64,000 nucleotides of DNA from Flavobacteriales bacterium (GTDB taxonomy: Bacteria > Bacteroidota > Bacteroidia > Flavobacteriales_D > Sanyastnellaceae), in contig JBIIWZ010000010.1 in the NCBI GenBank assembly GCA_044338665.1, forward strand, positions 4,447 to 68,446. The letters are read 5' to 3'. How positions within the stretch are numbered: position 1 is the first letter of the stretch; every line of letters starts with the position of its first letter. The notes below the pieces were generated by a model that was given only the letters and a program-made list of their open reading frames with translations, searched no databases and was not told where the DNA came from. Positions 28,579-61,044 of the stretch are shown one piece after another. The position numbers were made by a program, and so were the translations under genes.

Positions 28579-28606
28579 TGGCGGAGAGAGAGGGATTCGA
28601 ACCTTC
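28579..28606 (-). pseudogene. 3-prime fragment of a tRNA-Ser-like gene (T-arm, acceptor 3-prime strand, discriminator G, CCA)
   Basis: The minus strand reads GAAGG TTCGAAT CCCTC TCTCTCC G CCA. I could not draw a complementary 5-prime acceptor strand (GGAGAGA), a D-arm or an anticodon stem in the next ~70 nt. Confidence 0.5.
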
Positions 28607-28661
28607 ACTAAAAACCCTTTGTTTTCAAGTGTTTCAGAAGACCCTTAATCCCTGACGCTCC
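28592..28661 (+). repeat. island-bounding direct repeat, copy 1 (att-like)
   Basis: gggattcgaaccttcactaaaaaccctttgttttcaagtgtttcagaagacccttaatccctgacgctcc. It matches 60975-61044 at 63/70 positions with no gaps (hand alignment). Confidence 0.8.
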
Positions 28662-28755
28662 GATTACGCTCGTCTTTTCATTTTCAATTAGAACGAAGGT
28701 AATAATTTTTTCGTCAACTTAAAAATGAGTCAAATGAATTTTCAACACTACATAA

Positions 28756-29340
28756 TTAAAGGTCTCTGTCTAAATTTATAAGAATAAGGCAAAAATCATT
28801 GGGGTTCTCACGTTTAAGTTTAGTGATATTTTTCAGGATGTGCTTTGAGAAATAACCGGTGTATTTCGCCCAATAGAGCACGACGGTTTTGGGGTAATTT
28901 TTCGCTTGACTTCGGACTTGTTGCTTCTCCTCTTCACTGATTTTCAGAAGTTCAAGTTCGTGTTCGAACTTTAAATCTGTGTTTATGTATGGATGAGACT
29001 TTTTTTCAGGAGGAAAAGTAGCGAACGGCTTTTTCGCAACGAAATCCCCTGTGCACTGAGAGAATCCTGTATATAATTCACCATTTGAATCGTAGATCCG
29101 CAATTGAACAGCCGAGAACAGCTTTTCATTGTCTAGAAAGAGCATATGTCTTTTTGAATACAAATCTTTATGCAGCGTATCTACAACCTCAAAACTAAAA
29201 TCGCATATGTATTTTCCGTTGGAAAGAAACAGTTCTTGCTCTTGCTCTGTTGTATTCCTCTGCTCCGAAATACTTAGGATATGAACAAAGTTGCAAGATT
29301 GAAGAAAAACAAAAGAAAGAACCAAATAACAATATTTCAT
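28756..29340 (-). CDS. hypothetical lipoprotein
   Basis: Trimmed to MKYCYLVLSFVFLQSC (lipobox). The tracked N-terminal extension runs through a repeat. Confidence 0.55.
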   Translation of the reverse strand: MKYCYLVLSFVFLQSCNFVHILSISEQRNTTEQEQELFLSNGKYICDFSFEVVDTLHKDLYSKRHMLFLDNEKLFSAVQLRIYDSNGELYTGFSQCTGDFVAKKPFATFPPEKKSHPYINTDLKFEHELELLKISEEEKQQVRSQAKNYPKTVVLYWAKYTGYFSKHILKNITKLKRENPNDFCLILINLDRDL

Positions 29341-29397
29341 GAAGTATGTGCTTAGTGAACGATTTACTTTTTTAGGACGAGACGATGTTTCAATTAC

Positions 29398-29450
29398 GAT
29401 CCCGATAGCTATCGGGAGCATAATTCCAATTCGTAATTGGAACTTCGTTG
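29398..29450 (-). repeat. cassette 3-prime repeat, subfamily b (CCCGATAGCTATCGGG hairpin plus CCAATT-N3-AATTGG)
   Basis: tcccgatagctatcgggagcataattccaattcgtaattggaacttcgttg. Its paralog is at 34153-34210. It lies 3-prime of the stop of 29494..30048. Confidence 0.7.
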
Positions 29451-29493
29451 CTCAGAGATGTCATTGCGATTTGTAGTGCTCATTCAAGAAATC

Positions 29494-30048
29494 CTACATC
29501 TGTCCGTCTGGCCGGTTATATACTATTGTCATTTTTTTTTCAAAAGCTGAAGTAGAAATTTCTAATTCCCAAGATTTGTCAATTGTCGGAAGTGCTTTTT
29601 TAGAATGGTCTAAAAACCTAAACCAACCCCGTGTCTCCTCTGTTATCTTAAAGCTCTGGTTGTTGTCACAAAATACGTCTAAGCAAATATTGTCAGTGAC
29701 ATAGTGGTCCTCTTTATATCCATGCATTGATATAATTTCTGTCCACTGAATCGATTGTACACCCTCGTTTGTTTTTATTGAAAAGCCTAAGTCGCTGAAG
29801 GTGAAAATACCGTTATCTGTGTAAATTTCTTTAAAATTCTTTTCGTTTTGATCTTTATAACCTGTGATATTTTGGTCAGAAATCTCAACTCTTCTGATGG
29901 TTGATCTGAAGAATTTTATAATGAAAAAGATTGTTCCGCCACCAAAAAAGATAGTCCCAACCCAACTAAATGCCAAGCCTCTTGAAATACCCCAAGCAGA
30001 TAAACTGGTCATCATAAGTCCAATTAATATGTTTCTTCTTGCTTTCAT
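29494..30048 (-). CDS. hypothetical membrane-anchored protein (two N-terminal TM helices)
   Basis: 184 aa. Hydrophobic N-terminus ILIGLMMTSLSAWG and WVGTIFFGGGTIFFIIKFF. Its start overlaps the stop of the upstream gene by 4 nt. Confidence 0.55.
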   Translation of the reverse strand: MKARRNILIGLMMTSLSAWGISRGLAFSWVGTIFFGGGTIFFIIKFFRSTIRRVEISDQNITGYKDQNEKNFKEIYTDNGIFTFSDLGFSIKTNEGVQSIQWTEIISMHGYKEDHYVTDNICLDVFCDNNQSFKITEETRGWFRFLDHSKKALPTIDKSWELEISTSAFEKKMTIVYNRPDGQM

Positions 30049-30485
30049 TTTCCGTGAGTTATTCTAATAACCTTGCTGTCTCGACCGTCAATAATTATTG
30101 AAAACGTCCCGCCCTTCATACCCGAAGGAAGTGTTCCTTCAATTAACCAATAATTGTCTTTGAAGTAAATTTCGTAAGGTCGTTGATTTATTATGTTTTC
30201 TTTGCCGTAAATACTGAAGAGGATTGGTTCGGCTACATTTATTGCAGTTACACTGTCTTTAATAATTGCAGTATTGTTGTGAATTAAGTTGTGCTTTGAG
30301 CTGTCGACAAGGGAAGATTGAAGTTCCTGCTCTGCTTGAACTTGTGAAGTTGTCGGCTTAAATCCTTTGCCATTGTCACAGGTGTCACTTTCGAAAACAA
30401 CAAAGTCTTGAACATGCTTTCTTTCTGAGTCGTTACAACTAACCAAAAATAATATGATCAATTTAGAGATTGTTCGTCTTATCAT
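30045..30485 (-). CDS. NTF2-fold immunity protein-like lipoprotein
   Basis: Start MIRRTISKLIILFLVSC (lipobox). The C-terminal AINVAEPILFSIYGKENIINQRPYEIYFKDNYWLIEGTLPSGMKGGTFSIIIDGRDSKVIRITHGK matches, from memory, the pattern of the Imm-NTF2-2 family of polymorphic-toxin immunity proteins. Confidence 0.5.
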   Translation of the reverse strand: MIRRTISKLIILFLVSCNDSERKHVQDFVVFESDTCDNGKGFKPTTSQVQAEQELQSSLVDSSKHNLIHNNTAIIKDSVTAINVAEPILFSIYGKENIINQRPYEIYFKDNYWLIEGTLPSGMKGGTFSIIIDGRDSKVIRITHGK

Positions 30486-30522
30486 AACAGCCACTTTTGC
30501 CAAACTGATGCTGGGAGTAGAT

Positions 30523-31365
30523 TTACTCTGCGTTACATCCATATTCTCTGTCTTTTGGCGATTTCAAACAATGTCCACTAAAGAATAAATCTAAAGTTGG
30601 TGGATTATATCTTTCGTGAGTTACTTTCATTAATTTCGGATAATTAGCTAATGCGATTTTTGCTTTTTTCAGAACAATTTCTTCCATTAAATCAGGTGCT
30701 TCCGAATTAAAAATCATTTCAACTTTGTCTATTTTTCCATTTTTTTTGAAAGTAACATTTACTATGCATGAGCTTTCTTCATCAAATTGATTTCTTTCAT
30801 CTATTGTAATTTCTTGCAGTATTAATTTTTTAATGGAGTCGGACAATCTTCTTTCTGCTGGAAATATCTGTTTGTCATTGTACTTAACATATTCTTTTAT
30901 TTCCGTATTTTTAATTTTACCATTTTCAAATTTGTAATAAATTTCTTTCTCATAAATAGACATATAGCCCATATGGACGTATTGAATTAGTTGTCCTTTT
31001 GGTTGTATAATGGTGTGATTAACCCAATTAGCAAAGACGTTTGAAGTTCCAAATTCTATTTTAACATCCAAATCAATAGGGTTTTTACCACAATAATCTG
31101 TTTGTATTCTGACTAAAAACAAACTGTCATTTTGCAACTTCCAAGTTGCGACATATCCTCTCCATAGTGCCGTGCAACTACCTTGCATTTCCTCGCCATT
31201 TATAGTCCGCGTACCTTTTCTATCAAAGTATCCCTCTAACGGATTTGAATTGATCTCAAATGTGTCTTTCGAAATAATTAAGAGGTCGCCAAACTGGGCA
31301 GTCCCCAATACCTCAGTGATTTGCGTTAGGGTAAAAAAAATAAGTATTAAAGTTCTAAGGTTCAT
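30523..31365 (-). CDS. hypothetical secreted protein
   Basis: Trimmed to MNLRTLILIFFTLTQITEVLGTAQ (signal peptide). 280 aa. Confidence 0.55.
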   Translation of the reverse strand: MNLRTLILIFFTLTQITEVLGTAQFGDLLIISKDTFEINSNPLEGYFDRKGTRTINGEEMQGSCTALWRGYVATWKLQNDSLFLVRIQTDYCGKNPIDLDVKIEFGTSNVFANWVNHTIIQPKGQLIQYVHMGYMSIYEKEIYYKFENGKIKNTEIKEYVKYNDKQIFPAERRLSDSIKKLILQEITIDERNQFDEESSCIVNVTFKKNGKIDKVEMIFNSEAPDLMEEIVLKKAKIALANYPKLMKVTHERYNPPTLDLFFSGHCLKSPKDREYGCNAE

Positions 31366-32034: not shown

Positions 32035-32135
32035 ACTATAATTGGCTATAACGTTTTGTGGGTTTAAGAAGTTGGCGATTTCGGAGTACAAAACCGTCTG
32101 CCAGCATCGAACTTGATACGAAGCACAAAACTTCA

Positions 32136-32184
32136 TTTAACCACTGAACCGCCAATTTCTTAAACCCGCTGTTAGCGGTTCGGG
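32136..32184 (-). repeat. cassette 3-prime repeat, subfamily a
   Basis: The minus strand reads CCCGAACCGCTAACAGCGGGTTTAAGAAATTGGCGGTTCAGTGGTTAAA. It lies about 30 nt 3-prime of the stop of 32215..32799. Confidence 0.7.
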
Positions 32185-32214
32185 CTTCTGTCTGTCCGTT
32201 GTCGTGTATCACTC

Positions 32215-32799
32215 TCATTTTAGTGTCAAATAAGAATAAAGTTTTTTAGCAATGTCAGCTAGTTTGTTGTCCGTTTCAAATTTATAGTCGTTGTCAGAAT
32301 ACTGAATTGATAAAGTATAAATGTAACCGCTTTGTGCTTTGTCTGAATAAACAACTAAGTCAAAACGGCTTTGATTAAGTCCTTTAGATTGTCTGTAAAA
32401 ACGAGTGTTTAGCAAATATGCGTCCTGTCCCGAAGCAAGTTTTATTTTCTCTTGACCGTCTTTGAATTTTTTAGGAAATTCTCTGTCGGAGTTTGCTCTG
32501 TAACCGCTTAAACACTTGTCTTTGCAGTCGTCAAGATTTTTACCGTCTTGCTTAACATAAAAAATTGTCACCATAACAGGCGAGCCGTTAAACGAAGCAG
32601 GAAGTGCAAGTCCGCTGGCTTCTAAAAGTTGTTCTGGTCCTTGTCCACCAGTTGGCATTTGTCGCCACTTGTATGGAAATTTAAATTCATAGTTGTCTGT
32701 CGAAACCGTTTTTAAGCTGTCCCAAACTGTTGGGTCAACTTGTCCAAAAGCGGTCATTGTAAATAACGTTACTGTCAAAATTGTCAAGAGTTTTTTCAT
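32215..32799 (-). CDS. hypothetical secreted protein
   Basis: Signal peptide MKKLLTILTVTLFTMTAFGQ. 194 aa. Confidence 0.6.
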   Translation of the reverse strand: MKKLLTILTVTLFTMTAFGQVDPTVWDSLKTVSTDNYEFKFPYKWRQMPTGGQGPEQLLEASGLALPASFNGSPVMVTIFYVKQDGKNLDDCKDKCLSGYRANSDREFPKKFKDGQEKIKLASGQDAYLLNTRFYRQSKGLNQSRFDLVVYSDKAQSGYIYTLSIQYSDNDYKFETDNKLADIAKKLYSYLTLK

Positions 32800-32937
32800 T
32801 GTCTATTTGTTTGGCGTTTGTTTATTTTTTGCACTACTGTTTTGGTTTAGCACGGTCATCATAGCCTGACCGCTAACTTACTTATACGCGCTACGAACCT
32901 ACCTAATACATCCCAGCGCAGTATGTTCGATGAGGTT

Positions 32938-32970
32938 AAATTACGCATATTTTAGAGTACTTCAATTCAC
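32938..32970 (-). repeat. fragment of the leader-module 3-prime end
   Basis: aaattacgcatattttagagtacttcaattcac is the reverse complement of ...gattgaagtacttttaaaatacgcaatt... from modules A and B. It lies upstream of 32215..32799. Confidence 0.55.
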
Positions 32971-33005
32971 TTTTCATGTCAGCCTAAATTCTATATATTC
33001 TCCAA

Positions 33006-33455
33006 TTACAAATTAATTTGACGCAACTTGGTGAAATCAATGTGCACCCGATTTTCATCTTCCAAACAAGTTAATCTTATGGCCTCGCCTGTCGTATCAA
33101 TTTGAACATTACCCAAAACGGTTCCGTAGTAATCATAAACCGTTACATTGGCCACTTCGGTGGAATCGAACAGGTAGCTATAGTCCGAGAATAATTCTTC
33201 TTTTCCAATGACGTCTACTTGATTTTCTTCCGACGGTTGAAAGAGTTTCAAGTCTAATCTGTGACCATCAAACCCTCCAAAAAGTAATTTAGCTTCCGTG
33301 AAATGGAGCGGACCTTGGTTAGTTTGGATTGATTCACTTTTTGAATCTTCCGAATGATTATTAACTGCACTCTCAACTAACAATATTGCGACTACAATTG
33401 CAACAAAAATTAATACCGGGTAATTAATTGGTGATTTATAATAGAACCAATTCAT
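33006..33455 (-). CDS. hypothetical N-terminally anchored protein
   Basis: 149 aa with a single TM helix, PVLIFVAIVVAILLV. Confidence 0.5.
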   Translation of the reverse strand: MNWFYYKSPINYPVLIFVAIVVAILLVESAVNNHSEDSKSESIQTNQGPLHFTEAKLLFGGFDGHRLDLKLFQPSEENQVDVIGKEELFSDYSYLFDSTEVANVTVYDYYGTVLGNVQIDTTGEAIRLTCLEDENRVHIDFTKLRQINL

Positions 33456-33885
33456 TTTTAGTTTGTGTTGTGTTACGATTAATTTTCGACGATATCAACT
33501 TCAATGAAGAACCTTCTCTCCTAAACTCAAGCATAAGATCTACTTGAAAATCTGACGGAAAATGTCCGTCTAAAATCGAATCCACACGCTCCTTTGCTAA
33601 CGTGCTATTCACAAAGTAGAAAGTCATTTCCTCTGAATTTTCCAATGTTGAATACTGCTTAATAGCATTAACCAAGGAATCAGATTCGTCCATGCTATAT
33701 AATCTCTCATCTATGGTCTCAAAAACCAAGATGCCATTTCGGTGATCTAATAATCTGACATACCTATCGTCTTTGGTAAAGGCCTTATAGATAAGAATGC
33801 CTGCAATTATCACTACAACCAGAATTACCAAAGCTATCACTGTATCGGTAATTTTCAGATAGTTATTTCTTCCGTTTGAATTCAT
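33436..33885 (-). CDS. hypothetical N-terminally anchored protein
   Basis: Start MNSNGRNNYLKITDTVIALVILVVVIIAGILIY. Overlaps the downstream gene by 20 nt. Confidence 0.5.
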   Translation of the reverse strand: MNSNGRNNYLKITDTVIALVILVVVIIAGILIYKAFTKDDRYVRLLDHRNGILVFETIDERLYSMDESDSLVNAIKQYSTLENSEEMTFYFVNSTLAKERVDSILDGHFPSDFQVDLMLEFRREGSSLKLISSKINRNTTQTKNELVLL

Positions 33886-33944
33886 TTCTAAATTTTCGTC
33901 ATTCAATTTCAACACAAAAAAAGAATTACCATTTCTAAAATATT

Positions 33945-34210
33945 AAAAGTACAGAAATATTCTCCCCTACTAACCCCAAACACCATCAATTCTCTTCTTC
34001 CCAAAAAACTGCGCAGTTTTCTCGAGCTTCATTTTTGAAAAAAATCATATTTCACAAGGGGTTTGGCAGATTGGGACCGGAGAAAAATCCGCACAAATAC
34101 CTAGGAACTTCGTAATTGGAAAATCGGAGATTTTATTCCTGCTGCTTAATTCCTCCCGATAGCTATCGGGATCATACTTCCTAATTCATAATTGGAACTA
34201 CGTTGTTGTT
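33945..34210 (-). repeat. leader module copy D (contains the palindrome at 34003-34020)
   Basis: The first ~76 nt are identical to copy C (aaaagtacagaaatattctcccctactaaccccaaacaccatcaattctcttcttcccaaaaaactgcgcagtttt). It also shares aaaaatccgcacaaatacctaggaacttcgtaattggaaaatcggagattttattcctgct. Confidence 0.8.
34003..34020. promoter_or_regulatory. palindrome AAAAAACTGCGCAGTTTT (copy P1)
   Basis: Perfect 16-bp palindrome at 34005-34020 within module D. Confidence 0.5.
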
Positions 34211-34747
34211 CTTTATTTTTCTGGAATGAAACTGAAATTCTAATCTCAATTCTTTAAAAATTTTCAAACTAGAAAAACTTTTCCAAAGAGAATTACACCA
34301 AAGAACAGTAAACCCGAAAAAAAGAAATAAAAAATAAACGCCTTGCCATCGAAATGAAGCCTTCTTTTTCTCATTAGTTTTAAGAATCTGTTCTTGTAAA
34401 ATATTGAAAAATAGTTAACTATAAAAAAGGTAAGTAAAAAGTTAAAAATCCAGAGAAAGCTGTATTCAAATATTGCCCTGGAAAAAAATCAATTTTTTTA
34501 ATAGCGGATTAAATTTCACAAATGAACCAACTAAAAAATAAATAGACACCAAATTAAAACCTTGGGCTATTGAGAATGCAACTAACAGAGTTATCATTTT
34601 TTCCCTGTTGGATTTTCCACTATTAGTTTTTTTTTGCTTTAGCAATTCCGTCTAACCATATTTCATAATACCAATTCATGTTTTGTACTTGTATCCTAGA
34701 CGATCTATTATTCTCATTTTTATTTTCTGCTTACTTTAACTATCTAT

Positions 34748-34918
34748 TAAAAGATATAAGCGTTGAATATAACAAATAAAACCGCTGTTACTATTCCCGC
34801 CAAAGCCACTGTCTTCATTTGTTTTCTTTTATCAGTATTCTCTTTACTATTTTTTGATTTCATTGAGACGTATTCAAACATCACAATTGTGCAGATCAAA
34901 AACGAAAGAATGAACATG
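34748..34918 (-). pseudogene. truncated paralog of the 36335..36781 membrane protein (last 56 codons only)
   Basis: Encodes MFILSFLICTIVMFEYVSMKSKNSKENTDKRKQMKTVALAGIVTAVLFVIFNAYIF. The C-terminus of 36335..36781 reads MFILSFLICTIIMFVYASYKPTKSNENVAKRKYMKTVALAGIVTAVLFVLFSAFLF. Confidence 0.6.
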
Positions 34919-34963
34919 ACGATTATTATTTAGTTACCTATAAAAATAACTTACTCAAAGGCA

Positions 34964-35167
34964 CTATTCCCAGGGAAATCTATCAATTCTACGAAGAATA
35001 GCCGAGCCTCCCCCATGTTCCGAAGATTCAGGATACTCGTTTATCCATTTTTCGCCTGTCTTTACGTCAACATAGAAAACAACCCAATTCTCTTTGTTGA
35101 CTTCTTTTAACGTTTTTATTTTATCGTAATATAACTTTCCTTCTTCGTATATATCAGTGTCTTTCAT
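34964..35167 (-). CDS. Imm27-like small immunity protein
   Basis: 67 aa. GEKWINEYPESSEHGGGSAILRRI resembles, from memory, the Imm27 motif W-x-L-x-YP-x-S-E-x-HGGGPP-x-L. It is shorter than typical family members. Confidence 0.45.
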   Translation of the reverse strand: MKDTDIYEEGKLYYDKIKTLKEVNKENWVVFYVDVKTGEKWINEYPESSEHGGGSAILRRIDRFPWE

Positions 35168-35229
35168 TATTGAGAAATCGGAGATTTTAATACTAACTTA
35201 TCGTTTAGATTTTGAAACGAGATTCGATT

Positions 35230-35691
35230 CTAGTGGTCCATAGTATTCGCAGATGAACAGTGTGAATTATAGATCTCTAAGAATTCAGTTATAGCCACAA
35301 TAATCAAATAAATCAAAGTGAAACTGATTTTAACTTCAGTATCCTCTTCAAAAAAAGAAATCACAAAATACACCAGTGTGTAACGGATCATTGAAATCAT
35401 TAATACACTCAGATTAGACTCTAATCCTATTCTCTTTGCCAAAAAAATTGAAATTCTTAGCAATACATTACTCAATATAAAAAGAGAAAAAGACAACCAA
35501 GATGCTTTGAAAAGCCAATAAAGTAGCAACAAGACAGCAATAGGAACATCATTATATGGAACGTCACGACTTACGTTGAATTTAAAAAGCATGTAACAAC
35601 AAAATAGAACATTACAAACTATGGCGATAAGAATTTGCCTTATCAGTCGCGATCGAATGTTCTTGTTCAAACAAAAAAAGATGCTTTCCAT
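35230..35691 (-). CDS. hypothetical multi-pass membrane protein
   Basis: 153 aa with 4 hydrophobic segments. Confidence 0.5.
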   Translation of the reverse strand: MESIFFCLNKNIRSRLIRQILIAIVCNVLFCCYMLFKFNVSRDVPYNDVPIAVLLLLYWLFKASWLSFSLFILSNVLLRISIFLAKRIGLESNLSVLMISMIRYTLVYFVISFFEEDTEVKISFTLIYLIIVAITEFLEIYNSHCSSANTMDH

Positions 35692-35713
35692 AAAATTACA
35701 ATTTCTTCAAATA

Positions 35714-36313
35714 CTAAGCGAAATAAAAGAATTCGATCAAAATAGTATCGTCTTTTTTCCAGCGAACCCAACCAAAATTCGTATTTCCGTTGAGTTCCCA
35801 TTCCACTTGTAACCAATCTCCTTCAATTTTTACTGGATGGAAGACGCAGTCCTTATCGAAATTTATAGGTTCAGATTTTTCTGAGGCCTGTTTTCTCGGA
35901 GGATTTTTAGATTCAAATTCAATCGAAAATAAATTGAGTATATGTTCCTCAAAGGTGTTTAAAAGAACTTTACCCGAAGCAACGTCCAAATAACCAACCT
36001 CGCCACTCTCTAATCGGACTTTATAAAACTCTTCTGTTACATCTAAACAGTCCAATGCCAATATCTCATATTCTTCTTTCAGAATAATGAATTGCGCAAT
36101 TTGATTTTTATCGTTGTAAACGACAATTGTATCGCCGAATTTACACTCTGAACTACACACGACAATTCCAATTACCCCTTTAATATTTTTATATTCCGAC
36201 TCAATCTTTGAAATTTCCTCCGTATTCGAATATCTCTCAATGTTATTGCATATCGAACCATTTCCGGCAAGTGCGCATAACCATAGGCTGATAATGAGAA
36301 TAGTATTTTTCAT
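35714..36313 (-). CDS. hypothetical secreted protein with SH3b-like segments
   Basis: Signal peptide MKNTILIISLWLCALAG. GEVGYLDVASGKV and GDWLQVEW...GWVRW resemble bacterial SH3 domains. Confidence 0.5.
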   Translation of the reverse strand: MKNTILIISLWLCALAGNGSICNNIERYSNTEEISKIESEYKNIKGVIGIVVCSSECKFGDTIVVYNDKNQIAQFIILKEEYEILALDCLDVTEEFYKVRLESGEVGYLDVASGKVLLNTFEEHILNLFSIEFESKNPPRKQASEKSEPINFDKDCVFHPVKIEGDWLQVEWELNGNTNFGWVRWKKDDTILIEFFYFA

Positions 36314-36334
36314 TTTTTCAATTTCGTTTATTAA

Positions 36335-36781
36335 TTAGAAAAGAAATGCGCTGAATAAAACAAATAAGACAGCTGTTACTATTCCTGCCAAAGCCACTGT
36401 CTTCATATATTTTCTCTTAGCAACATTCTCATTACTTTTTGTTGGTTTATATGAGGCGTATACAAACATTATAATTGTGCAGATCAAAAACGAAAGAATA
36501 AACATAACCGAAATCCAAGCTTTTCCTTCGGCATCATCAGTACCACCTGCGAAGCATCGGACGAGAATGTCATTGACAAGTAAGAGTCCGTAATTGTATA
36601 TAACTGTCTTTGAAAAACTAGTTTTATAAAGTGGGAAGTTAATGATTGCAATTACGATTGTAAGTACCCAGGGTGTTGCAAGAATTGAAAATGGTGGATT
36701 AGAATTTCCAAGAATATTACTGATTACAATTAAAGCAACTCCTAAAAATACTAATTGAATTTCTCTTGTACTTTCGTTCAT
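36335..36781 (-). CDS. hypothetical 4-TM membrane protein
   Basis: 148 aa. It has a truncated paralog at 34748-34918. Confidence 0.55.
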   Translation of the reverse strand: MNESTREIQLVFLGVALIVISNILGNSNPPFSILATPWVLTIVIAIINFPLYKTSFSKTVIYNYGLLLVNDILVRCFAGGTDDAEGKAWISVMFILSFLICTIIMFVYASYKPTKSNENVAKRKYMKTVALAGIVTAVLFVLFSAFLF

Positions 36782-36888
36782 AATGTTTGTGTTTCGTTAC
36801 TTCCTGTTATTAAATCCCTTCACTATATGAAGGGTTACAACTGTTTGCTGTTGTCTTTGTGATAAACTCAATGCAATATTTCAATATT

Positions 36889-37641
36889 CTAATTCATATG
36901 TATTGTTTCAAATCCCAATTCCTTAATATCGGCCTCAAACATGTCCTTTGAGTTTCTCAATTCCCAACTAAGTTTTTGATTGTTCCATTTGAAAATAACA
37001 GGATAATTCAGCGTAATGGAATCACAACTTGCATTAAGGTACGAATAAAAATTCCCACGCAGAAAATGAGTGTCATCCTGAAAACTAATCAAATTGTATA
37101 AATTATCATATGATTTAAAATCAACAAAATCCTCGCTATAATTAACAATGACATAGTTAATTACTAAGTACCAGTTTTCAAAATTCTTGGTAAAAACTCT
37201 AGGTATTGCAAATCGAAATTCTATATTATCCTCCAAACAATCTACTTTTTCACCCCATTTAACTACATCTCCAAAATGGTTATCATGAAATTCATTAAAA
37301 TCTTTAAGTTGTGACTCAGACAATCCAAAATCATGGTAAGAATAATACTTAAAATGTGTTTCTAAATCCCATACACGATTACCAAATTGCTTTCCTCTTC
37401 TTATGAAACTCGCAGAATATGCATTGCGTTGCTCATCAAATCTCAATTGCTTCTCGCCAAAAACCTTCGGAAAGTAAAATGTATCATTCAACATTTGATT
37501 AAATACACTTTCAAAATTAATATCCACAGTGTCCGCAACAGAAAAATGTTCTTCTCTTGAGGAACAAGATGAAAGGACCATTGTCATGACTGCAAAGAAG
37601 ACAAAGAACTGGTCCTTAATTATTTTATTTGATTTCACCAT
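36889..37641 (-). CDS. hypothetical lipoprotein
   Basis: Lipobox MTMVLSSC. 250 aa. Confidence 0.55.
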   Translation of the reverse strand: MVKSNKIIKDQFFVFFAVMTMVLSSCSSREEHFSVADTVDINFESVFNQMLNDTFYFPKVFGEKQLRFDEQRNAYSASFIRRGKQFGNRVWDLETHFKYYSYHDFGLSESQLKDFNEFHDNHFGDVVKWGEKVDCLEDNIEFRFAIPRVFTKNFENWYLVINYVIVNYSEDFVDFKSYDNLYNLISFQDDTHFLRGNFYSYLNASCDSITLNYPVIFKWNNQKLSWELRNSKDMFEADIKELGFETIHMN

Positions 37642-37677
37642 TAATTTTCAATCTCAATTAGGTGTGATTTTCTTCTG

Positions 37678-37917
37678 TTAGTTTAAAAACTCGTTAGAGT
37701 ATGTCATTTCATAAACAATCCAAAACCCAATTATGATAATGGGCAAAATAACTGCCCACTTCCATGAGATATCAATTGGATACTTTTGGAAAATCTCGGG
37801 CTGGATGTAATTAAAAAGGATGATTAGGATTAATGTCAAAACGAATAGCAATGCAAAACCAACACCTAAAACCAGGAGCAGAAAAGGCATACCCATCATT
37901 GCTTGTAGCAAGATCAT
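37678..37917 (-). CDS. small 2-TM membrane protein
   Basis: 79 aa with two hydrophobic helices. Confidence 0.45.
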   Translation of the reverse strand: MILLQAMMGMPFLLLVLGVGFALLFVLTLILIILFNYIQPEIFQKYPIDISWKWAVILPIIIIGFWIVYEMTYSNEFLN

Positions 37918-37991
37918 AGTTGTTGATTTGGTTTGTTCTTTTTCTATTTCATTTTTAAAATTGAAATGCTTTCAATCTTTTCATTTCGAAA

Positions 37992-38558
37992 TCATCTTGT
38001 AAAATGAAAACTTCGTGGATCCATTAACTTCCACTGATCATGAAAATCGAATGGAGTTAAGCTTAGAACATAATGCTTACGACCTATGGAAAAATACAAC
38101 TTCATATCGGCGCGAGTATGTGCCTGAGGCGCAACTTCAAAATCTTTAGATGCCGGCCATAAAACTTCCATGTCGGGCCCATCTATCTTTGGAATTATAT
38201 AATTGTAAGTAATACTATCTAAAATCGCTTTTGACCAATTTATCTTTCCTAGATCTTGTATTTCCTCATTAAAATTTAATATGAATTCATTTCTCAATTG
38301 ATTGTATACTTCAGCAGAGATACTTTCTTGCTCTACTCTTTTCACAAGCTCGCCTTGAACCCCTCTGGCCTTCATCTCGTCTAAAATCGCTATTTTCAAT
38401 TGCTCCTGAGAAACATAGAGGTAATCTATTAATTTCTCAGATTGCTGTGATTGTAATCTGCGAAAAACTTCTTGTGCCCAAATTATTGGATTCATCGCGT
38501 AGCTCGCTGATATTGAATTCAGCGAAATTGTGAAAAGAACTAGTGTTTTCAATCTCAT
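37992..38558 (-). CDS. hypothetical secreted protein
   Basis: Signal peptide MRLKTLVLFTISLNSISASYA. Confidence 0.55.
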   Translation of the reverse strand: MRLKTLVLFTISLNSISASYAMNPIIWAQEVFRRLQSQQSEKLIDYLYVSQEQLKIAILDEMKARGVQGELVKRVEQESISAEVYNQLRNEFILNFNEEIQDLGKINWSKAILDSITYNYIIPKIDGPDMEVLWPASKDFEVAPQAHTRADMKLYFSIGRKHYVLSLTPFDFHDQWKLMDPRSFHFTR

Positions 38559-38562
38559 ATTT

Positions 38563-39237
38563 TCATTCCATTTCTACATCTAAATAAACAGATAAATCTG
38601 GTGAATTACTTTTCAGTAGAGTCTTTTTCATTTTCTCTAAAGACAAGTGAACGTTTTTATTGCGATTGTTTATCCAAATAGTTCCTGTAACGTTTTTTAT
38701 TGAAGACAAATCTGGTTCATTTTCGAAATACCCATAGATGTTTAAAAAATCAACTGAACTTAACGATGAGATTATACCAGGAATACCATTCGAATCACAC
38801 TCCAACGTTAACGTTCCTAATTTCTTATCCTTCAAAAAATTTGAATCGTCCACATTCAAATAGCTTAATCCTATATCCTTTAAATCGCGACTTATTATAC
38901 TGCCTTTTAATTCCGCGTAACGTGTGGCATATAAACGCAAACTAACTAAACCTTCTATTTCAATATTCTCATTTATTATTAAGGAATCGGTTAATATCTC
39001 CAAATGTTTGACTTTGGTCTTCCCTATTGACTTTAGAATGATTGAAAGCATTTTACTTTCAGCAGGATAAATATTCAACAAAAAAATAGAGTCGACATTT
39101 TCAAGGTACTTCAAATCGTATAAACTTTCCAAACTGCAAAAAGTATAGTAGTTAAGTTCAGGCTGATTGCTCTGAGGCTCTGGTTGATTGCAAGCGAAAA
39201 GAAGTATGGAAAGGAATATTACACAACATTTTTGCAT
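38563..39237 (-). CDS. hypothetical lipoprotein with leucine-rich-repeat-like segments
   Basis: Trimmed to MQKCCVIFLSILLFAC. Repeated L-x-x-L-x-L/I-x-x-N-like stretches. The tracked N-terminal extension enters leader module C. Confidence 0.5.
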   Translation of the reverse strand: MQKCCVIFLSILLFACNQPEPQSNQPELNYYTFCSLESLYDLKYLENVDSIFLLNIYPAESKMLSIILKSIGKTKVKHLEILTDSLIINENIEIEGLVSLRLYATRYAELKGSIISRDLKDIGLSYLNVDDSNFLKDKKLGTLTLECDSNGIPGIISSLSSVDFLNIYGYFENEPDLSSIKNVTGTIWINNRNKNVHLSLEKMKKTLLKSNSPDLSVYLDVEME

Positions 39238-39291
39238 TCGATTTCGACTAATCAAAATGTGAAGTAATAAAATCAATTGTTTCATTAAATT

Positions 39292-39622
39292 AAAAGTACA
39301 GAAATATTCTCCCCTACTAACCCCAAACACCATCAATTCTCTTCTTCCCAAAAAACTGCGCAGTTTTTTCGGCCTTCATTTTTGAATATTTTCAGATTTA
39401 ACAAGAGATACAGAAGATTTGGAGTAAATAAAAATCCGCACAAATACCTAGGAACTTCGTAATTAGAAAATCGGAGATTTTATTCCTGCTTAGTAATTAA
39501 AACTGCGTTGTTGGAACTATGTTGTTTGAACTTCGTTGTTAAAATCGTCGAAGACATTCGCGAAGCATTCGCACAAAGTGCATTCGTCCGTAGGACATTC
39601 GCCTCCGGCATTTGTTCCTACG
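39292..39622 (-). repeat. leader module copy C (full length, with GAATG array and the palindrome at 39350-39369)
   Basis: It shares both conserved blocks with copy D. Segment 39533-39622 is the reverse complement of the GAATG array at 41938-42022. Confidence 0.8.
39350..39369. promoter_or_regulatory. perfect 20-bp palindrome AAAAAACTGCGCAGTTTTTT (copy P2)
   Basis: Read directly from the sequence. Confidence 0.55.
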
Positions 39623-39638
39623 GAACATTTTGCCCTTC

Positions 39639-39750
39639 AAAAAAAACTGCACAGTTTTTTACACCAGGCTTCTTTCATTTTTCCATAAAAATCAATACTT
39701 TCAACGATTTTGACTTCCTGAAAAATCCGTAGAAATACCTAGAAAAAAAA
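39639..39750 (-). repeat. partial second leader module with a variant palindrome (AAAAAAAACTGCACAGTTTTTT, P3)
   Basis: aaaaaaaactgcacagtttttt at 39639-39660, followed by ...cctgaaaaatccgtagaaatacctag, which resembles module C. Confidence 0.55.
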
Positions 39751-42022: not shown

Positions 42023-42103
42023 TTTAAGAAGCATCAACTATCATCTTCGGTGAGCAATACCGAGGATGAATTGAAAATTGATAATTAAACAAGAACGAAT
42101 ACC

Positions 42104-49335: not shown

Positions 49336-50085
49336 ATGAGACCAATTCACATACTTGCCACACTTCTTGTTTTAACCACAAGTTGCGGTAATTCGCAAAC
49401 GCTACAAGAGCAAAAAGCGTTAACTGGAGACATCGAGACTGACGTGAATAACTTATTACCTCGCGGCAAAAAAACAGTTGATGTAATGGATGGTATAATG
49501 CAAACTAAGCGTCAAGAAGAATTGACCATAAAGTTTCAAGAAGCAATTAAACAAAATTATGACTGGTTTATAGATTATTCACAAACTAAGCCTGCGGGGC
49601 AGCCTATGGCCTATCATCCCAACACAGGTTTAACAGAAAAAGAATTCGAAGAATTAATGAGTTACGCGGTTAACATCGAGCTTGTTTCCACGGGTAAAAA
49701 GGAAATGGAAATAACTAACATAAGCAATATAATTGAATTTCAAACCAATGAAGAAAAGCTAAAGTTGCTTGAATCTGTTCAAATTGATTTATCCAGAAAT
49801 ATTGTGTATTTGGGCGAATACCAATTATCATTCTCCGACTCAATAAATGCTGCTGACAATACAAATGCATTAAAAAGCAAATGGAAAGGATATTCTTGGA
49901 AATATGAGGAGCCTGGTAACCACGATATAAATGCTTTTAAAAACAAAGAGAGAATGAATGTTAAGAAGTATGAATTTAGAATAGGTCGGTTAGAAAAAAA
50001 TGAGAAGACATACTTATCCATTAAGGGTCTAGAAATTGAAAACGGTGTCAAGAAAGTTGAATTTGATTTACCTATTATATTTTAA
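49336..50085 (+). CDS. hypothetical lipoprotein
   Basis: Lipobox LTTSC. Confidence 0.55.
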   Translation: MRPIHILATLLVLTTSCGNSQTLQEQKALTGDIETDVNNLLPRGKKTVDVMDGIMQTKRQEELTIKFQEAIKQNYDWFIDYSQTKPAGQPMAYHPNTGLTEKEFEELMSYAVNIELVSTGKKEMEITNISNIIEFQTNEEKLKLLESVQIDLSRNIVYLGEYQLSFSDSINAADNTNALKSKWKGYSWKYEEPGNHDINAFKNKERMNVKKYEFRIGRLEKNEKTYLSIKGLEIENGVKKVEFDLPIIF

Positions 50086-50142
50086 TTTCATTGTGCATCA
50101 AATTCAATTCAAACAGAGAATAAATCGAACTAAAAACTATTT

Positions 50143-50487
50143 ATGAAGCCTAAATTCAAACTTGTAATATTCGTTTTCGTTTGCATACTTTTTATCCCTT
50201 TTTTTTCTCAAACGTTTCGTAGATCACTCTCAAGCACATTAGGAAGTTGGATTTCACCAATCGACAATCAATATATAATTGCAGAAGCTGAGTGGTTAAG
50301 CGAATCGGGGGGAATAATAAGATTTGATAATGGCTTTTCATTATTGAGAAACGACACTATTTATTCTGAAGGAGAACCAAAGCGCGTGGTTATAAATTTA
50401 AATAAATACTTTAATGAAATGACGACAAGAGATCTCAAAACAAACGAGATCAGGAAATATACTAGCACGCGTGAATTCGTGAAGTAG
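50143..50487 (+). CDS. hypothetical small secreted or anchored protein
   Basis: N-terminal hydrophobic segment LVIFVFVCILFIPFF. Confidence 0.45.
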   Translation: MKPKFKLVIFVFVCILFIPFFSQTFRRSLSSTLGSWISPIDNQYIIAEAEWLSESGGIIRFDNGFSLLRNDTIYSEGEPKRVVINLNKYFNEMTTRDLKTNEIRKYTSTREFVK

Positions 50488-50510
50488 TTGCAAAACCAAA
50501 TACTCTACAT

Positions 50511-50699
50511 ATGCCCTCTCATAAAAACAAAAGGATAGCAGTTATCTTACTTTCAATCATTGGTGGAATCACTTTTGCCGCATTTGCACTTTATAATCAA
50601 AGCGGAAAAATTGGCAATACTGAAGTTATTTCTTTAGCATTGACTGCTATCATAGGAATAGTTATTTCAATCATTATTATTAAAAAATCTGACAAATGA
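50511..50699 (+). CDS. small 2-TM membrane protein
   Basis: 62 aa. Overlaps the next gene by 4 nt. Confidence 0.45.
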   Translation: MPSHKNKRIAVILLSIIGGITFAAFALYNQSGKIGNTEVISLALTAIIGIVISIIIIKKSDK

Positions 50700-58256: not shown

Positions 58257-58868
58257 ATGAAAAAGACATTACTCGGATTACTTTTTACTCTACTCGTTTC
58301 ATCAGTATTATTTGCGCAAGACAGCGAAATACAAAACGGTGATCTCATTTTTCAGACTTCACTTTCAGAACAGAGTAAGGCCATTCAGCTGGCAACAAAA
58401 TCTGAATATTCACACTGCGGGATTATATTTAATGAAGGCAACGACTATTATGTTTTTGAAGCCATTCAACCCGTAAAGCGCACACCCCTCGACAAATGGA
58501 TCGCTCGAGGTAAAAATGGTGAATACGCTATCAAGCGACTTAAAAACGCAGCACAAGTTTTAACTCCAACGACAATAGCAAAAATGAAACAGGTTGGTGA
58601 CGAATTTCGCGGTAAAAATTACGACTTGACTTTCGATTGGAGTGACGATAAAATTTATTGCTCTGAACTAATTTGGAAGATCTATCAGCGTGCAACAGGA
58701 ATTGAAATAGGCAAACTTGAAAAATTGAGCGACTTCGATTTGACCAGCGATGCGGTGAAGAAAAAAATGAACGAACGTTATGGCAATAAAATTCCTCTAA
58801 ACGAAATAGTCATTTCTCCTGCTTCCATTTTTAACAGCGAATTGCTCGTTACGGTAAAATCGAATTGA
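58257..58868 (+). CDS. secreted YiiX/YaeF-like permuted papain-fold (NlpC/P60-related) hydrolase
   Basis: Signal peptide present. GDLIFQ...SEYSHCGIIF...VFEA...YCSELIW follows the pattern of the C92 YiiX family. Confidence 0.6.
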   Translation: MKKTLLGLLFTLLVSSVLFAQDSEIQNGDLIFQTSLSEQSKAIQLATKSEYSHCGIIFNEGNDYYVFEAIQPVKRTPLDKWIARGKNGEYAIKRLKNAAQVLTPTTIAKMKQVGDEFRGKNYDLTFDWSDDKIYCSELIWKIYQRATGIEIGKLEKLSDFDLTSDAVKKKMNERYGNKIPLNEIVISPASIFNSELLVTVKSN

Positions 58869-58869
58869 A

Positions 58870-58917
58870 GGATTTAGGTTGAAATGAAATGGGGATTGAA
58901 GTTTTTGACGAATTTGG
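58870..58917 (+). repeat. orphan fragment of the leader-module 3-prime block
   Basis: ggatttaggttgaaatgaaatggggattgaagtttttgacgaatttgg compared with module A tctagggtgaaatgaattagggattgaagtactttt. No ORF follows it. Confidence 0.55.
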
Positions 58918-59274
58918 TGTTCCCTTAAATTCTTGGATTGCAAAACCAGAATAAAATCAAATGAAAAAATTTGGGGAAAAGCAAAACTAAAAATGGTAGG
59001 ACAAACCACGACAAAAGCACAACACAATGAAGGACCTACCCGAAACGTAATTCGACCACTACATCCGAGATCCCACGTAAACGACGTAAGTAATTCAGGC
59101 GATTTTCGTTTTACGGCGTAAAACGACGTTCAACGGCGTAAAAAAATGAAACGTTTCGATTTTTATAGGCATCTAGTCAGATAGCGCGAATTTCACCTTG
59201 TACGCTTTCGGCTATTTCGATTAATAAGAAAACTATTTTGAAAAATGCTAATCCTATTGATTACGATAATTGTT

Positions 59275-59351
59275 CTTGCCCCATTCTTTCCAATTTACCA
59301 GATACCACAAGCCGAGACAATGACTTTCGAATTGCCGTTGAAGCGCGCAAT
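59275..59351 (-). pseudogene. remnant of an abiEi antitoxin gene (about 27 codons)
   Basis: 71/77 nt identical (hand alignment) to 62595-62671 inside the intact abiEi. Encodes LRASTAIRKSLSRLVVSGKLERMGQEQLS-stop. Confidence 0.7.
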
Positions 59352-59354
59352 ACG

Positions 59355-60842
59355 TTAATTAAAGCGTGGTGAAATTTTCAAAATGCCATCTGAATCTTCC
59401 ATAAATGCTTTGCATGAAGTTAAATACTCTTGCATATTCTCCATGCTTTCATCATATACATTGGCACTGAACTGATGTGCTCTTTGGAGCATTTTAATGT
59501 AGGTGTCGCACTTTCCCTGCTTCGTGAATTTCTTCAATGCTCCCATATAGTCTTCACGGTAAACGGTTGGAATGATAATTTTCGATTGCTCGGCTTTTAC
59601 CAATTCGGCATTCATCATCACACGCGCTATACGACCGTTGCCATCCAAGAAAGGATGCACCTCACTCATCACAAACATTATATAGGCAGCTTTTGCGAAA
59701 GGATGATCCAAGGCTGAATAAAATCCAAAGCTCTGTTCCAATGTTCCCCTCACCAAATTAAAATCCACAAAGGCTGTACTTCCAGCAAAATTATTCTTGT
59801 CCTTAAAAAGACCTGGATTTTTATCTACCCTAGCACGGAGCAATATCGAATGTCGTAACGATATTATTTTCAAAAACTCCTCTGGCGATGAAGGTGTAAC
59901 CTCCATTTCCTTTTTATTTGATACAATCTGATATGTACCCAACACATCATGACTATCATCGTTTCTTGCAGGAATTGGCTTATTGGATTGAATGATTTGT
60001 TTTGCTTCTTCAATTTCAAAAACAGTTCCCTCAATGTAATTTGAAAAATAGCTTTCAAAAAAAGCGAAGTTCCGGAATGATGTAGGTGTTGTATTTTTCT
60101 CTTCCCTGAACGGGAATTCTGTTTGCTTTAATTCACGAAACAACGTTTCAAATAATTCTAGCCTTGCAGGATCATAAGGCTTTCCAAATGCCCTCGCTTT
60201 TGCCAAAGGAGAACTAAGAATTTTAGATGTTTTCGTTGTCAGCAATGCGCTAATCAAACGATTTAATCTTTCAAATTCTTCAGGCATCTCCAACTTATCG
60301 GCAAGGTCTCTAGCTCGATCTCTCAACTTGTTGATTTCAACCTCGCCATTCACTCGTATTATTTGCTCTAAACGCTCCTCTATTTCGGGTAAACTCAAAC
60401 ACTTTGATTCACTACCTAATTTCCTGGATGCTTGCAAATTTTCCAGAAAAGCACGTGCTTTCTGAGAAGCGTGCAATTCACCAGAAAATTTATTGTCCCC
60501 TTCTATCGGTGAAGGGCCATTGAGAAATTGGATAGTAATTCCAGGAAGTTTTACTTTTTTAGTGTAGCTCGTAGTTAAAAATATCTTCCCCGTTTTAGTT
60601 GGCTGAAATTCAAAAGCAGAGCGATGGCTAAGCATTGTTCCTGGGTAGAGCGTTCCTAAAATATGAAAGAGATTTCTTCGGATAATGCCTTCAATTGGTT
60701 CTTCTAAATTTGAAGAATACACCCTTGGTGCAATTTTTCTAATGACCCCAGCCGATAACAATTTTGTTATTTGTTTAGAAATCTTAGAATCCTGCGAACT
60801 GCAGATTACCTCTTGCAAGTGAATTGGGCGATTTTTTTCCAT
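59355..60842 (-). CDS. Fic family protein with an AbiEi-like N-terminal winged-helix module
   Basis: Fic motif HPFLDGNGRIARVMMN. N-terminal ISKQITKLLSAGVIRKIAPRVYSS ... KIFLTTSYTKKVKLPGITIQFLNG parallels AbiEi IRKSLSRIVVSGKLERMGQGIYVV ... KLVYLTSGHSKRIQIGKSAIVFKS. Confidence 0.8.
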   Translation of the reverse strand: MEKNRPIHLQEVICSSQDSKISKQITKLLSAGVIRKIAPRVYSSNLEEPIEGIIRRNLFHILGTLYPGTMLSHRSAFEFQPTKTGKIFLTTSYTKKVKLPGITIQFLNGPSPIEGDNKFSGELHASQKARAFLENLQASRKLGSESKCLSLPEIEERLEQIIRVNGEVEINKLRDRARDLADKLEMPEEFERLNRLISALLTTKTSKILSSPLAKARAFGKPYDPARLELFETLFRELKQTEFPFREEKNTTPTSFRNFAFFESYFSNYIEGTVFEIEEAKQIIQSNKPIPARNDDSHDVLGTYQIVSNKKEMEVTPSSPEEFLKIISLRHSILLRARVDKNPGLFKDKNNFAGSTAFVDFNLVRGTLEQSFGFYSALDHPFAKAAYIMFVMSEVHPFLDGNGRIARVMMNAELVKAEQSKIIIPTVYREDYMGALKKFTKQGKCDTYIKMLQRAHQFSANVYDESMENMQEYLTSCKAFMEDSDGILKISPRFN

Positions 60843-60974
60843 TATTCATCAGATCTGACACAAGATTAGCTAAATTTTTCCACTATAAAGCCATTTTGGG
60901 AAAATATTTTCCAGTAAGAAGATTGCGTTAATTAGTAGGTTTCTCAAAATATTAGCAACCCATAAAGGTGAATT

Positions 60975-61044
60975 GGGATTCGAATCTTTACTAAAAACCT
61001 TGTGTTTCCATGTGTTTCAGAAGACCCTTAATCCTTGACGCTCC
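60975..61044 (+). repeat. island-bounding direct repeat, copy 2 (att-like)
   Basis: gggattcgaatctttactaaaaaccttgtgtttccatgtgtttcagaagacccttaatccttgacgctcc. It matches copy 1 at 63/70 positions. It has no acceptor/CCA sequence to its left. Confidence 0.8.

Follow-up and report, generated by a model that had tools for sequence, protein, structure and literature searches.

The DNA analysed here, called the window, is a 64,000-nucleotide stretch of contig JBIIWZ010000010.1 from an uncultured freshwater bacterium of the Flavobacteriales/Crocinitomicaceae, and it carries most of an integrative island that lies at a tRNA-Ser gene. To the right of the chromosomal gene for a 470-aa protein, the window contains the terminator and a 3′ fragment of a tRNA-Ser(GGA) gene, the first copy of a 70-bp direct repeat, a long cargo region, an AbiEi gene remnant, a Fic-domain gene, the second copy of the repeat and a module that encodes the AbiEii/AbiEi pair, a 156-aa protein, an excisionase-like helix-turn-helix (HTH_17) protein and the end of a tyrosine integrase (Table 1). 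An earlier note on this DNA, prepared from the nucleotide letters, placed the island between the two repeats. The repeats are real, but the right copy is not the island boundary. The island extends to an intact tRNA-Ser gene beyond the window and is probably a composite of two related elements that were joined in tandem, in which the tRNA-distal block (A) has become integrase-less cargo beside the tRNA-proximal element (B).

The tRNA-Ser attachment sites and the extent of the island

The two copies of the repeat (repeat family D7) align without gaps and are identical at 63 of 70 positions (90%), as a repeat search and a direct reading of the sequence both confirm. At the left copy, the minus strand at 28579-28608 reads GAAGG-TTCGAAT-CCCTC-TCTCTCC-G-CCA and continues into a hairpin and a T-run. 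The earlier note interpreted these letters as the T-arm, acceptor strand and CCA of a tRNA-Ser, and this assignment holds: positions 28581-28603 match the 3′ end of the intact tRNA-Ser(GGA) gene of the same genome (6892-6914 of contig L026) at 23 of 23 bases. The hairpin (CCAACGAT/ATCGTTGG) and T-run, also recognized in the note, are the terminator of the tRNA-Ser gene itself; the same hairpin lies downstream of the intact tRNA-Ser in three related contigs (L011, L012 and L013). This terminator is chromosomal DNA and represents the B′ side of the attachment (att) site. As the note also stated, the tRNA is not intact at the left repeat. ARAGORN finds zero tRNAs within the 64-kb window, and Rfam gives no match in the window at gathering thresholds and a sole match, to tRNA-Sec, at relaxed thresholds (16.7 bits, well below the cut-off of 47; E = 2.1).

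A decayed full-length tRNA (pseudo-tRNA) that comprises both the left repeat and the tRNA fragment, and that would explain the 70-bp length, was considered and rejected. The 58-nt arm of the repeat resembles the 5′ part of a tRNA no better than shuffled sequences do (84 to 754 of 2000 shuffles reach the observed score). The arm is unchanged beside a different acceptor strand in contig L030 and thus shows no covariation, and the Rfam support amounts to the 16.7-bit match.

What forms the right boundary of the island? Exact-protein look-ups retrieved contigs L021, L022 and L026 (133-kb and 255-kb freshwater metagenome contigs), which are 100% identical to positions 49355-64000 of the window; L026 specifically covers 51131-64000 at this identity. 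Their sequence leads through the HTH_17 gene and the 411-aa tyrosine integrase gene into a 252-bp non-coding arm, tRNA-Ser(GGA), tRNA-Phe(GAA) and housekeeping genes. The intact tRNA-Ser gene is located at ~65249-65334 in window coordinates, ~1.25 kb past the window end, and it forms the right boundary. Its 3′ end contains the partner (~65249-65271) of the 23-bp core GGTTCGAATCCCTCTCTCTCCGC at 28581-28603, which spans the T-stem and T-loop, runs up to the first C of CCA and constitutes the left direct repeat (attR) of the whole island. Because of the att alignment described below, and because the partner core at the tRNA lies beyond the window, the true island, as delimited from sequence, is ~36.7 kb long, extends from 28,581 to ~65,271 and contains its integrase at the tRNA-proximal end.

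The four att configurations attB (L011), attL (L026), attR (window) and the P′-core-P junction (L031) share the 23-bp core, and their flanks are swapped exactly as integrative recombination predicts. In attL, tRNA-Ser is followed by TGAAACACTTGCGAATAACACC..., and attR consists of ...TTTTTAGTGAA, the core, CACCCATTAAGCC and the terminator; the P′-core-P junction is embedded in the tandem remnant of L031. The empty site is seen in L011, a related species with a 93% identical flank protein, in which the 470-aa gene, the terminator, tRNA-Ser, tRNA-Phe and the right backbone follow each other directly, and this right backbone is collinear with that of L026. In L016, L018 and L019, the flank gene is likewise followed by tRNA-Ser and tRNA-Phe. 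The earlier note had suggested looking for an intact tRNA-Ser to the right of the window and for an empty site in related genomes, and both were found. Its proposal of site-specific integration at the 3′ end of a tRNA is borne out by the att comparison, the empty site and the position of the integrase beside the intact tRNA-Ser.

Base composition sets the island apart from its left flank. The G + C content falls from 0.431-0.432 in the backbone to 0.351-0.352 between the repeats and is 0.389 on the right side of copy 2, and the earlier note was right to describe the DNA between the repeats as AT-richer. The tetranucleotide profiles also separate: the two halves of the backbone correlate at 0.96 and those of the island at 0.98, whereas backbone and island correlate at 0.80. 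A step in G + C content is present at the left boundary only, and the content is flat (0.38-0.39) across copy 2. The AAGGT repeats, described in the note as a backbone feature that is missing from the island, form tandem arrays with a 12-nt period at just four sites (2421-2563, 4562-4656, 14081-14267 and 16686-16772), and the AAGGT pentamer is ~3-fold denser in the backbone than in the island. These arrays are intergenic, lie only outside the island, are built on AAGGTnnnnnnn and also exhibit periods of 24, 34 and 36 nt.

The integrase module and the AbiE pair make up element B. The integrase contains Arm-DNA-bind_5, Phage_int_SAM_5 and Phage_integrase domains (Pfam, on the L033 orthologue), and its open reading frame (ORF) lies 252 bp from the intact tRNA-Ser. 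Domain scans of all ORFs of at least 80 aa reveal no recombinase domain between the repeats, as the earlier note had stated. The note was also right that the sole integrase lies to the right of copy 2, but AbiEii and AbiEi come first and the integrase is located further to the right. The 156-aa and HTH genes are conserved in L009, L027 and L033. Element B would be complete in ~4.3 kb, consisting of the P arm, AbiEii/AbiEi, the 156-aa gene, HTH_17, the integrase and the P′ arm. L009 carries element B alone (segment g, AbiEii, AbiEi, the 156-aa gene and HTH_17; 96.4% identical) beside the backbone, without the 32 kb.

Table 1. Features of the island and its left flank in window coordinates
Feature	Position	Strand	Description
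Native intrinsic terminator of the tRNA-Ser gene	28544-28572	-	Hairpin and T-run
tRNA-Ser(GGA) 3′ fragment	28579-28603	-	Includes the 23-bp att core
70-bp repeat, copy 1	28592-28661		T-loop part of the core and 58 bp of element-side P arm
Segment S	28662-28704		43-bp conserved extension of the P arm; second ACGCTC motif and imperfect inverted repeat
Variable low-GC cargo	28705-59073		~36 unrelated ORFs
Imm-NTF2-2 (NTF2-fold immunity) orphan gene	30045-30542	-	Pfam PF15631, E = 2.9e-24
Regulatory operon	39874-41931	+	Polytopic membrane protein, histidine kinase, LuxR/GerE-type response regulator
Lipoprotein with XAC2610-related domain	48361-49257	+	NCBIfam NF047539, E = 1.3e-9, 38.4 bits (cut-off 35)
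AbiEi gene remnant	59275-59358	-	84 bp; 90% identical to 62595-62678 (D6)
Fic-domain protein	59355-60842	-	495 aa, SoFic-like; Pfam Fic E = 2.7e-12; PADLOC SoFic E = 1.7e-18
Segment f, 5′ flank of Fic	60843-60972		Ends exactly at copy 2 in the window
70-bp repeat, copy 2	60975-61044		Internal truncated att site: P arm and only TTCGAATCCC of the core
AbiEii toxin	61131-62162	-	Type IV toxin-antitoxin / abortive-infection pair with AbiEi
AbiEi/DUF6088 antitoxin	62152-62757	-	Partner of AbiEii; pair at 61131-62757
156-aa protein	62983-63453	-	Conserved element backbone gene
HTH_17 protein, excisionase/AlpA type	63450-63677	-	Conserved element backbone gene
Tyrosine integrase	63761-64000	-	Last 79 of 411 codons; rest of the gene beyond the window

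The 70-bp repeat and the origin of block A

The 70-bp repeat is best read as the conserved element-side P arm of attP, joined to that part of the core which lies in the T-loop. Six other metagenome contigs, with different cargo, share the arm (repeat plus S) at 92-97% conservation, and given this conservation the arm presumably contains binding sites for the integrase and the excisionase. S follows the single repeat copy in L001, L009, L029, L031 and L033 and is missing after copy 2. In the species represented by L029 and L032, the flank gene is only 72-79% identical, yet Fic is 97.5% and the AbiE pair 93.6% identical, and this contrast indicates horizontal spread of the element family. The arm sequence has zero matches in viral contigs (IMG/VR). 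In every variant, element-specific sequence begins directly after GGGATTCGAACC; exchange therefore occurs in or 3′ of the T-loop, and the crossover is probably at the T-loop.

Several observations on individual contigs and motifs touch the arm. At ~6100-6200 of L030, the arm adjoins, with the junction at GGGATTCGAACC, the 3′ end of another tRNA (...ATTACATCCGCC), so that the element family has more than one tRNA target, the T-loop being common to them. The 11-mer TGAAACACTTG occurs in the P arm (28629-28639, minus strand), ~25 nt before the T-stem, and recurs in the same orientation as the first bases of the P′ arm after the tRNA end (6915-6925 of L026). In copy 2, the minus strand at 61002-61019 contains two GAAACAC units. 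ACGCTC motifs are present in both the P and P′ arms. The TGAAACACTTG and GAAACAC units are possible candidates for integrase binding sites.

Copy 2 is a half site. Its share of the core amounts to 10-12 of 23 bases, after which it continues with AATTCACC... instead of the acceptor strand. Copy 2 thus lacks the acceptor-strand part of the core as well as the P′ arm. A canonical tandem junction of the element family, as seen in L031, contains a P′ arm of ~250 bp and a full core; copy 2 lacks the former and keeps only part of the latter. The reading of copy 2 as an att site that delimits the island, put forward in the earlier note, is not supported, given the truncated core, the missing P′ arm and the flat G + C content.

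Both ends of block A are homologous to a complete element. Contig L033 contains a complete single island of 14.6 kb with one repeat copy. From the backbone, it proceeds through core, arm and S to 9 kb of different cargo, which encodes a 1053-aa sensor kinase, a LytTR regulator and a 1348-aa protein; then come AbiEi, Fic and f and, after 66 bp, the 152-aa gene, HTH, the integrase and finally tRNA-Ser. L033 matches the window at 28479-28921 (94%), 59074-59278 (95.6%) and 59347-60970 (96.6%), and the match ends at ~60972, at the first base of copy 2. In L033, f runs via the 66 bp (h) into the 152-aa/HTH/integrase module. The AbiEi remnant of the window occupies the place of the full-length AbiEi of L033. 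As copy 1 and copy 2 are 90% identical and the AbiEi remnant in A is also 90% identical to the AbiEi gene of B, the two parts represent two diverged lineages and not a fresh duplication.

Element relatives offer two further observations. On the minus strand of L031 (1369-1790), a gene-less element relic of 420 bp, with f-like and h-like sequence, a 190-bp P′ arm and no integrase, sits between the chromosomal tRNA tail and the full P′-23-bp core-arm junction, which is followed by S; tandem arrays of the element family therefore decay to small scars. In L033 (10010-12184), a complete AbiEi/DUF6088 gene lies directly downstream of Fic, and this Fic-AbiEi pairing may be distinct from the usual AbiEi-AbiEii pair.

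We propose that the 411-aa integrase, using its arm-binding domain and probably assisted by the HTH_17 excisionase-like protein, recombined a P-core-P′ site with the tRNA gene. Integration would leave an intact tRNA and the integrase at the right end and the displaced chromosomal 3′ fragment with its terminator at the left end. A (of the L033 type) and B (of the L009 type), ~10% diverged, would have come to lie in tandem, and A, the tRNA-distal element of 32.4 kb, would then have been deprived of its 156-aa/HTH/integrase/P′ module and of half of the internal core, the outer one. Any remaining mobility would be that of the whole composite, via recombination between the outer 23-bp cores. The predicted attP of the whole island is ...GCAAGTGTTTCA-GCGGAGAGAGAGGGATTCGAACC-TTCACTAAAAACCC (P′ arm, 23-bp core, copy 1), and the restored attB would read tRNA-Ser followed by CACCCATTAAGCCAACG. 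If block A alone were excised, the predicted circle junction would be ...CATAAAGGTGAATT-GGGATTCGAACCTTCAC.

This history, although probable, faces several difficulties. The deletion in A would have to stop precisely at the T-loop of the internal core, and nothing shows how it did so. The block-free strains L001 and L009 are not simple excision products, given that they keep a copy-1-type arm, S and an 18-bp filler, and further insertions, deletions or recombination must therefore be assumed. The putative integrase-binding role of the arm has just its conservation and the short motifs TGAAACACTTG and ACGCTC behind it, most cargo proteins belong to no recognizable family, and neither a circular form nor a precise-excision junction was seen. 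An exact 25-mer specific to copy 2 had zero matches in the metagenome_contigs collection, which also lacks the source contig and is hence uninformative. A different route would avoid the illegitimate deletion: a small AbiE element could have inserted at a secondary site, the f|h boundary, of a single L033-type element, with homologous recombination between the ~93% identical modules then removing one integrase module. A one-sided core is the expected product of such an insertion, and compared with L033, the window contains copy 2, g, AbiEii, AbiEi and a segment x in exact replacement of the 66-bp h. However, the f|h sequence of L033 (GGTGCATATATCGTGG) is unlike the core, and an intermediate with two integrase modules was not found among the contigs, and we regard this route as unlikely. 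Accretion followed by deletion and secondary-site insertion give the same end product and are not separable here.

The earlier note had suggested a tandem array in which the block is either a fixed remnant, which agrees with the tandem accretion that we favour, or a trans-mobilized satellite, which does not fare well. In the latter case, the block would be a separate integrase-less satellite or cis-mobilizable element (CIME) that uses the 70-bp repeats as functional att sites and is moved by the integrase of its neighbour. In favour of this reading, the two copies start from one T-loop core and each has the conserved P arm, strains of the same backbone either have or lack the block, and tandem accretion of decayed and incoming elements is documented (PMC5704250). 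Nevertheless, a satellite with two working ends is the less likely reading and in our view decidedly improbable. With its truncated core, copy 2 is bordered on its 3′ side by CCCAATTCACC and not by a T-stem or acceptor strand, and solo integration would destroy the tRNA by replacing its acceptor strand. The strains without the block (L001, L009 and L028) break at 28704 | 61045, with the 18-bp filler, and not at the core. Moreover, the right end of the block, f, is internal sequence in the complete element L033, and it adjoins B in 7 of 7 Fic-bearing contigs. Highly improbable as an origin of the repeat are an internal duplication or a homologous recombination product without att history and a chimeric metagenome assembly. 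The identities along the window are mixed: the left backbone is 99.7-99.9% identical to L001-type sister strains, which lack the block, and the contig that the right part matches at 100% has a left backbone of only 93-95% identity to that of the window. The window is therefore a mosaic, as a biological or an assembly product. Relative to the latter contig (L035/L026; Joint Genome Institute contig Ga0335001_0000002, matching 23099-64000), identity rises from left to right: the left backbone and the initial 0.8 kb of the island are 93-95% identical, the stretch at 30.4-32.1 kb is 97.6%, that at 37.9-50.5 kb 99.8% and that at 51.1-64.0 kb 100% identical. A recent recombination or transfer tract thus starts inside the island. 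Against a chimera or duplication, the repeat copies are 10% diverged and each lies at a module boundary of the element family. In addition, the 255-kb contig, an independent assembly, has the backbone followed by copy 1, a variant of A and copy 2, and then B and the tRNA; it and the 133-kb contig each hold both junctions in the same order. L004 combines the backbone-to-A junction with the window's exact 470-aa flank protein. The identity mosaic points to recent recombination or transfer, and an assembly mosaic is less likely.

Cargo and strain variation

The cargo of block A is encoded on the minus strand at 28.7-39.3 kb and on the plus strand at 39.9-58.9 kb. A hydrophobic N-terminus (signal peptide, lipoprotein signal or membrane segment) is found in 34 of the 36 cargo ORFs by a crude hydropathy screen, and many of them contain lipoprotein-like Cys motifs. 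By contrast, none of the five ORFs of the Fic/AbiE/156-aa/HTH module has such an N-terminus. The cargo proteins show no paralogy among themselves at E <= 1e-3. Two of the ~36 genes match immunity families, namely Imm-NTF2-2 and XAC2610_fam; XAC2610 is presumably the immunity protein of a Xanthomonas type IV secretion system (T4SS) peptidoglycan-hydrolase effector. Other recognizable products are a TonB_C protein, an M48 peptidase, a PrsW protease, a DUF6438 protein and a C92 amidase. The remaining cargo has no family at relaxed Pfam (E <= 1) and NCBIfam thresholds, at which only XAC2610_fam was gained, and four cargo proteins had no match among sequences of the Protein Data Bank. The impression in the earlier note that the DNA between the repeats has almost no assignable genes was thus accurate. 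PADLOC detects only Fic, as SoFic. AbiE and Fic probably act in stabilization or defence.

Recognizable genes for transfer or for a phage life cycle are missing from the island. Positions 28705-60972 encode no recombinase, relaxase or T4SS domain. No island ORF of at least 80 aa matches a relaxase family, no MobP/oriT module was found in the ORFs, and Pfam reveals no phage structural, packaging or replication genes in the island. Therefore, the island is neither an integrative mobilizable element (IME) of the NBU type nor a prophage.

The private repeat families that the earlier note saw between the repeats are real and correspond to non-coding upstream modules. A shared module of ~250 bp occurs at 33916-34200, 39289-39620, 41947-42031, 42764-43081 and 54491-54834, directly 5′ of several genes of the island, whose orientation it shares. 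Its sequence includes CGAATG direct repeats 11-15 nt apart, CCTAGGTATTTGT and the palindrome AAAAAACTGCGCAGTTTTTT. The modules are a candidate regulon of the kinase/LuxR pair of the island. They match no known RNA family in Rfam, and a single integron-like attC motif at all intergenic regions was not found, each motif being present in only ~4 copies.

Contigs that share part of the cargo differ from the window by whole segments. Two segments are absent from L004 and L035, namely 29419-30412, with most of the Imm-NTF2-2 gene, and 32063-37929 (breaks at 29418|30413 and 32062|37930). At the first breakpoint in L004, the intergenic repeat of 34111-34173 is present as an inverted copy of 63 bp. Because the ends of these indels fall at intergenic repeats, cassettes appear to be gained and lost at these repeats. 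L037 (1-2168, compared with window 32042-40935), an 11.8-kb metagenome contig, contains the cargo of this window interval at 99.9% identity. This cargo adjoins electron-transfer-flavoprotein genes and a GC-rich stretch instead of the 470-aa/tRNA-Ser flank, with the switch at the repeat near 32.06-32.16 kb; either the cargo occupies a second genomic location or L037 contains an assembly join.

Sister strains with the same backbone (L001, L002, L003 and L005-L008) carry other genes at the same site. Downstream of AbiE, they have a GerE-type response regulator and three uncharacterized genes, then Thoeris ThsB(TIR)/ThsA(Macro), genes for a STAND NTPase and an HTH_3 protein, and one that exceeds 700 aa, and they thus represent a defence-island version of the locus. 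The locus is a hotspot at which defence and accessory genes vary from strain to strain, with AbiE, Fic, Thoeris and STAND in sister strains and a large set of secreted ORFans here.

What is the function of this exported cargo? The ~36 exported, lipoprotein or membrane ORFans with their immunity genes, the upstream modules with AAAAAACTGCGCAGTTTTTT, the dedicated kinase/LuxR pair and the cassette turnover at repeats could together constitute an interbacterial-defence or envelope-protection island, a proposal that we advance as doubtful. If it were true, the cargo would be a freshwater analogue of the acquired interbacterial defence (AID) and recombinase-associated AID (rAID) systems of gut Bacteroidales that rides on a tRNA-Ser integrase element.

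Relation to known systems

The cargo resembles AID and rAID-1 of gut Bacteroidales (10.1101/471110) in that it is a low-GC array of many small unrelated genes on a tyrosine-recombinase element, with repetitive intergenic sequences, whole-gene differences between strains and two immunity-family genes. rAID-1 is defined by a 5′ XerD-like recombinase at least 44% identical to BF9343_RS08045 that is followed by at least two co-directional low-GC genes (10.1101/471110). In the island, however, only 2 of the ~36 genes are recognizable immunity genes and no toxin remnants were seen in the cargo. The 30-kb cargo forms two divergent blocks and not one co-directional array downstream of the recombinase, and the recombinase is an arm-binding tRNA integrase. 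The cargo resembles AID/rAID in style but probably falls outside the rAID-1 definition.

The Bacteroides elements NBU2 and NBU1, which integrate at the 3′ ends of tRNA-Ser and tRNA-Leu, respectively, share with the island a Bacteroidota host, a tyrosine integrase at the tRNA-Ser 3′ end (NBU2) and a small element core. They differ in their cargo and in the MobP relaxase/oriT module, which no island ORF encodes. Another parallel is the accretion of CIMEs with integrative and conjugative elements (ICEs) or IMEs, as described for ICESt1/ICESt3 of Streptococcus thermophilus and the tRNA-Lys islands of S. agalactiae (PMC5704250). In both cases, two related elements lie in tandem at one tRNA, separated by an internal chimeric att site; one of the two is decayed, with neither integrase nor transfer genes, and the composite is potentially moved as one unit. 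A CIME in the strict sense keeps att sites at both ends (PMC5704250). By contrast, the internal site of the island is truncated to half a core without a P′ arm, so that attL and attR are not both kept, and the decayed part is therefore probably no longer separately mobilizable. Furthermore, no conjugation or mobilization partner was identified. An NBU2-type IME, a prophage or phage satellite and a strict CIME were each rejected for failing a defining feature.

The island provides a resolved example, with all four att configurations, of the growth of tRNA-linked islands in uncultured freshwater Bacteroidota. Small integrase and toxin-antitoxin elements stack at one tRNA-Ser gene, and neighbours that lose their integrase become cargo. 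The example also carries a lesson for annotation, in that a long direct repeat, however conspicuous, can represent an att arm inside an island and not its edge. Its main value is that of a catalogue entry and of a lead on the function of the exported cargo.

Williams is said to have described, in 2002, a sublocation class of integration sites that runs from the T-loop to the 3′ end of the tRNA gene. Classical tRNA-linked islands with a tyrosine integrase share with the present island the integrase beside an intact tRNA, the 23-bp repeat of the tRNA 3′ end at the far end, the displaced 3′ fragment with its native terminator, the foreign composition and the empty site in a relative. They also share the HTH_17 excisionase-like gene and the toxin-antitoxin module. 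The present island differs from them in its lack of recognizable transfer, mobilization or phage genes and in its host, but in nothing essential. It is a composite tRNA-linked integrative island of a well-known kind, with a textbook mechanism.

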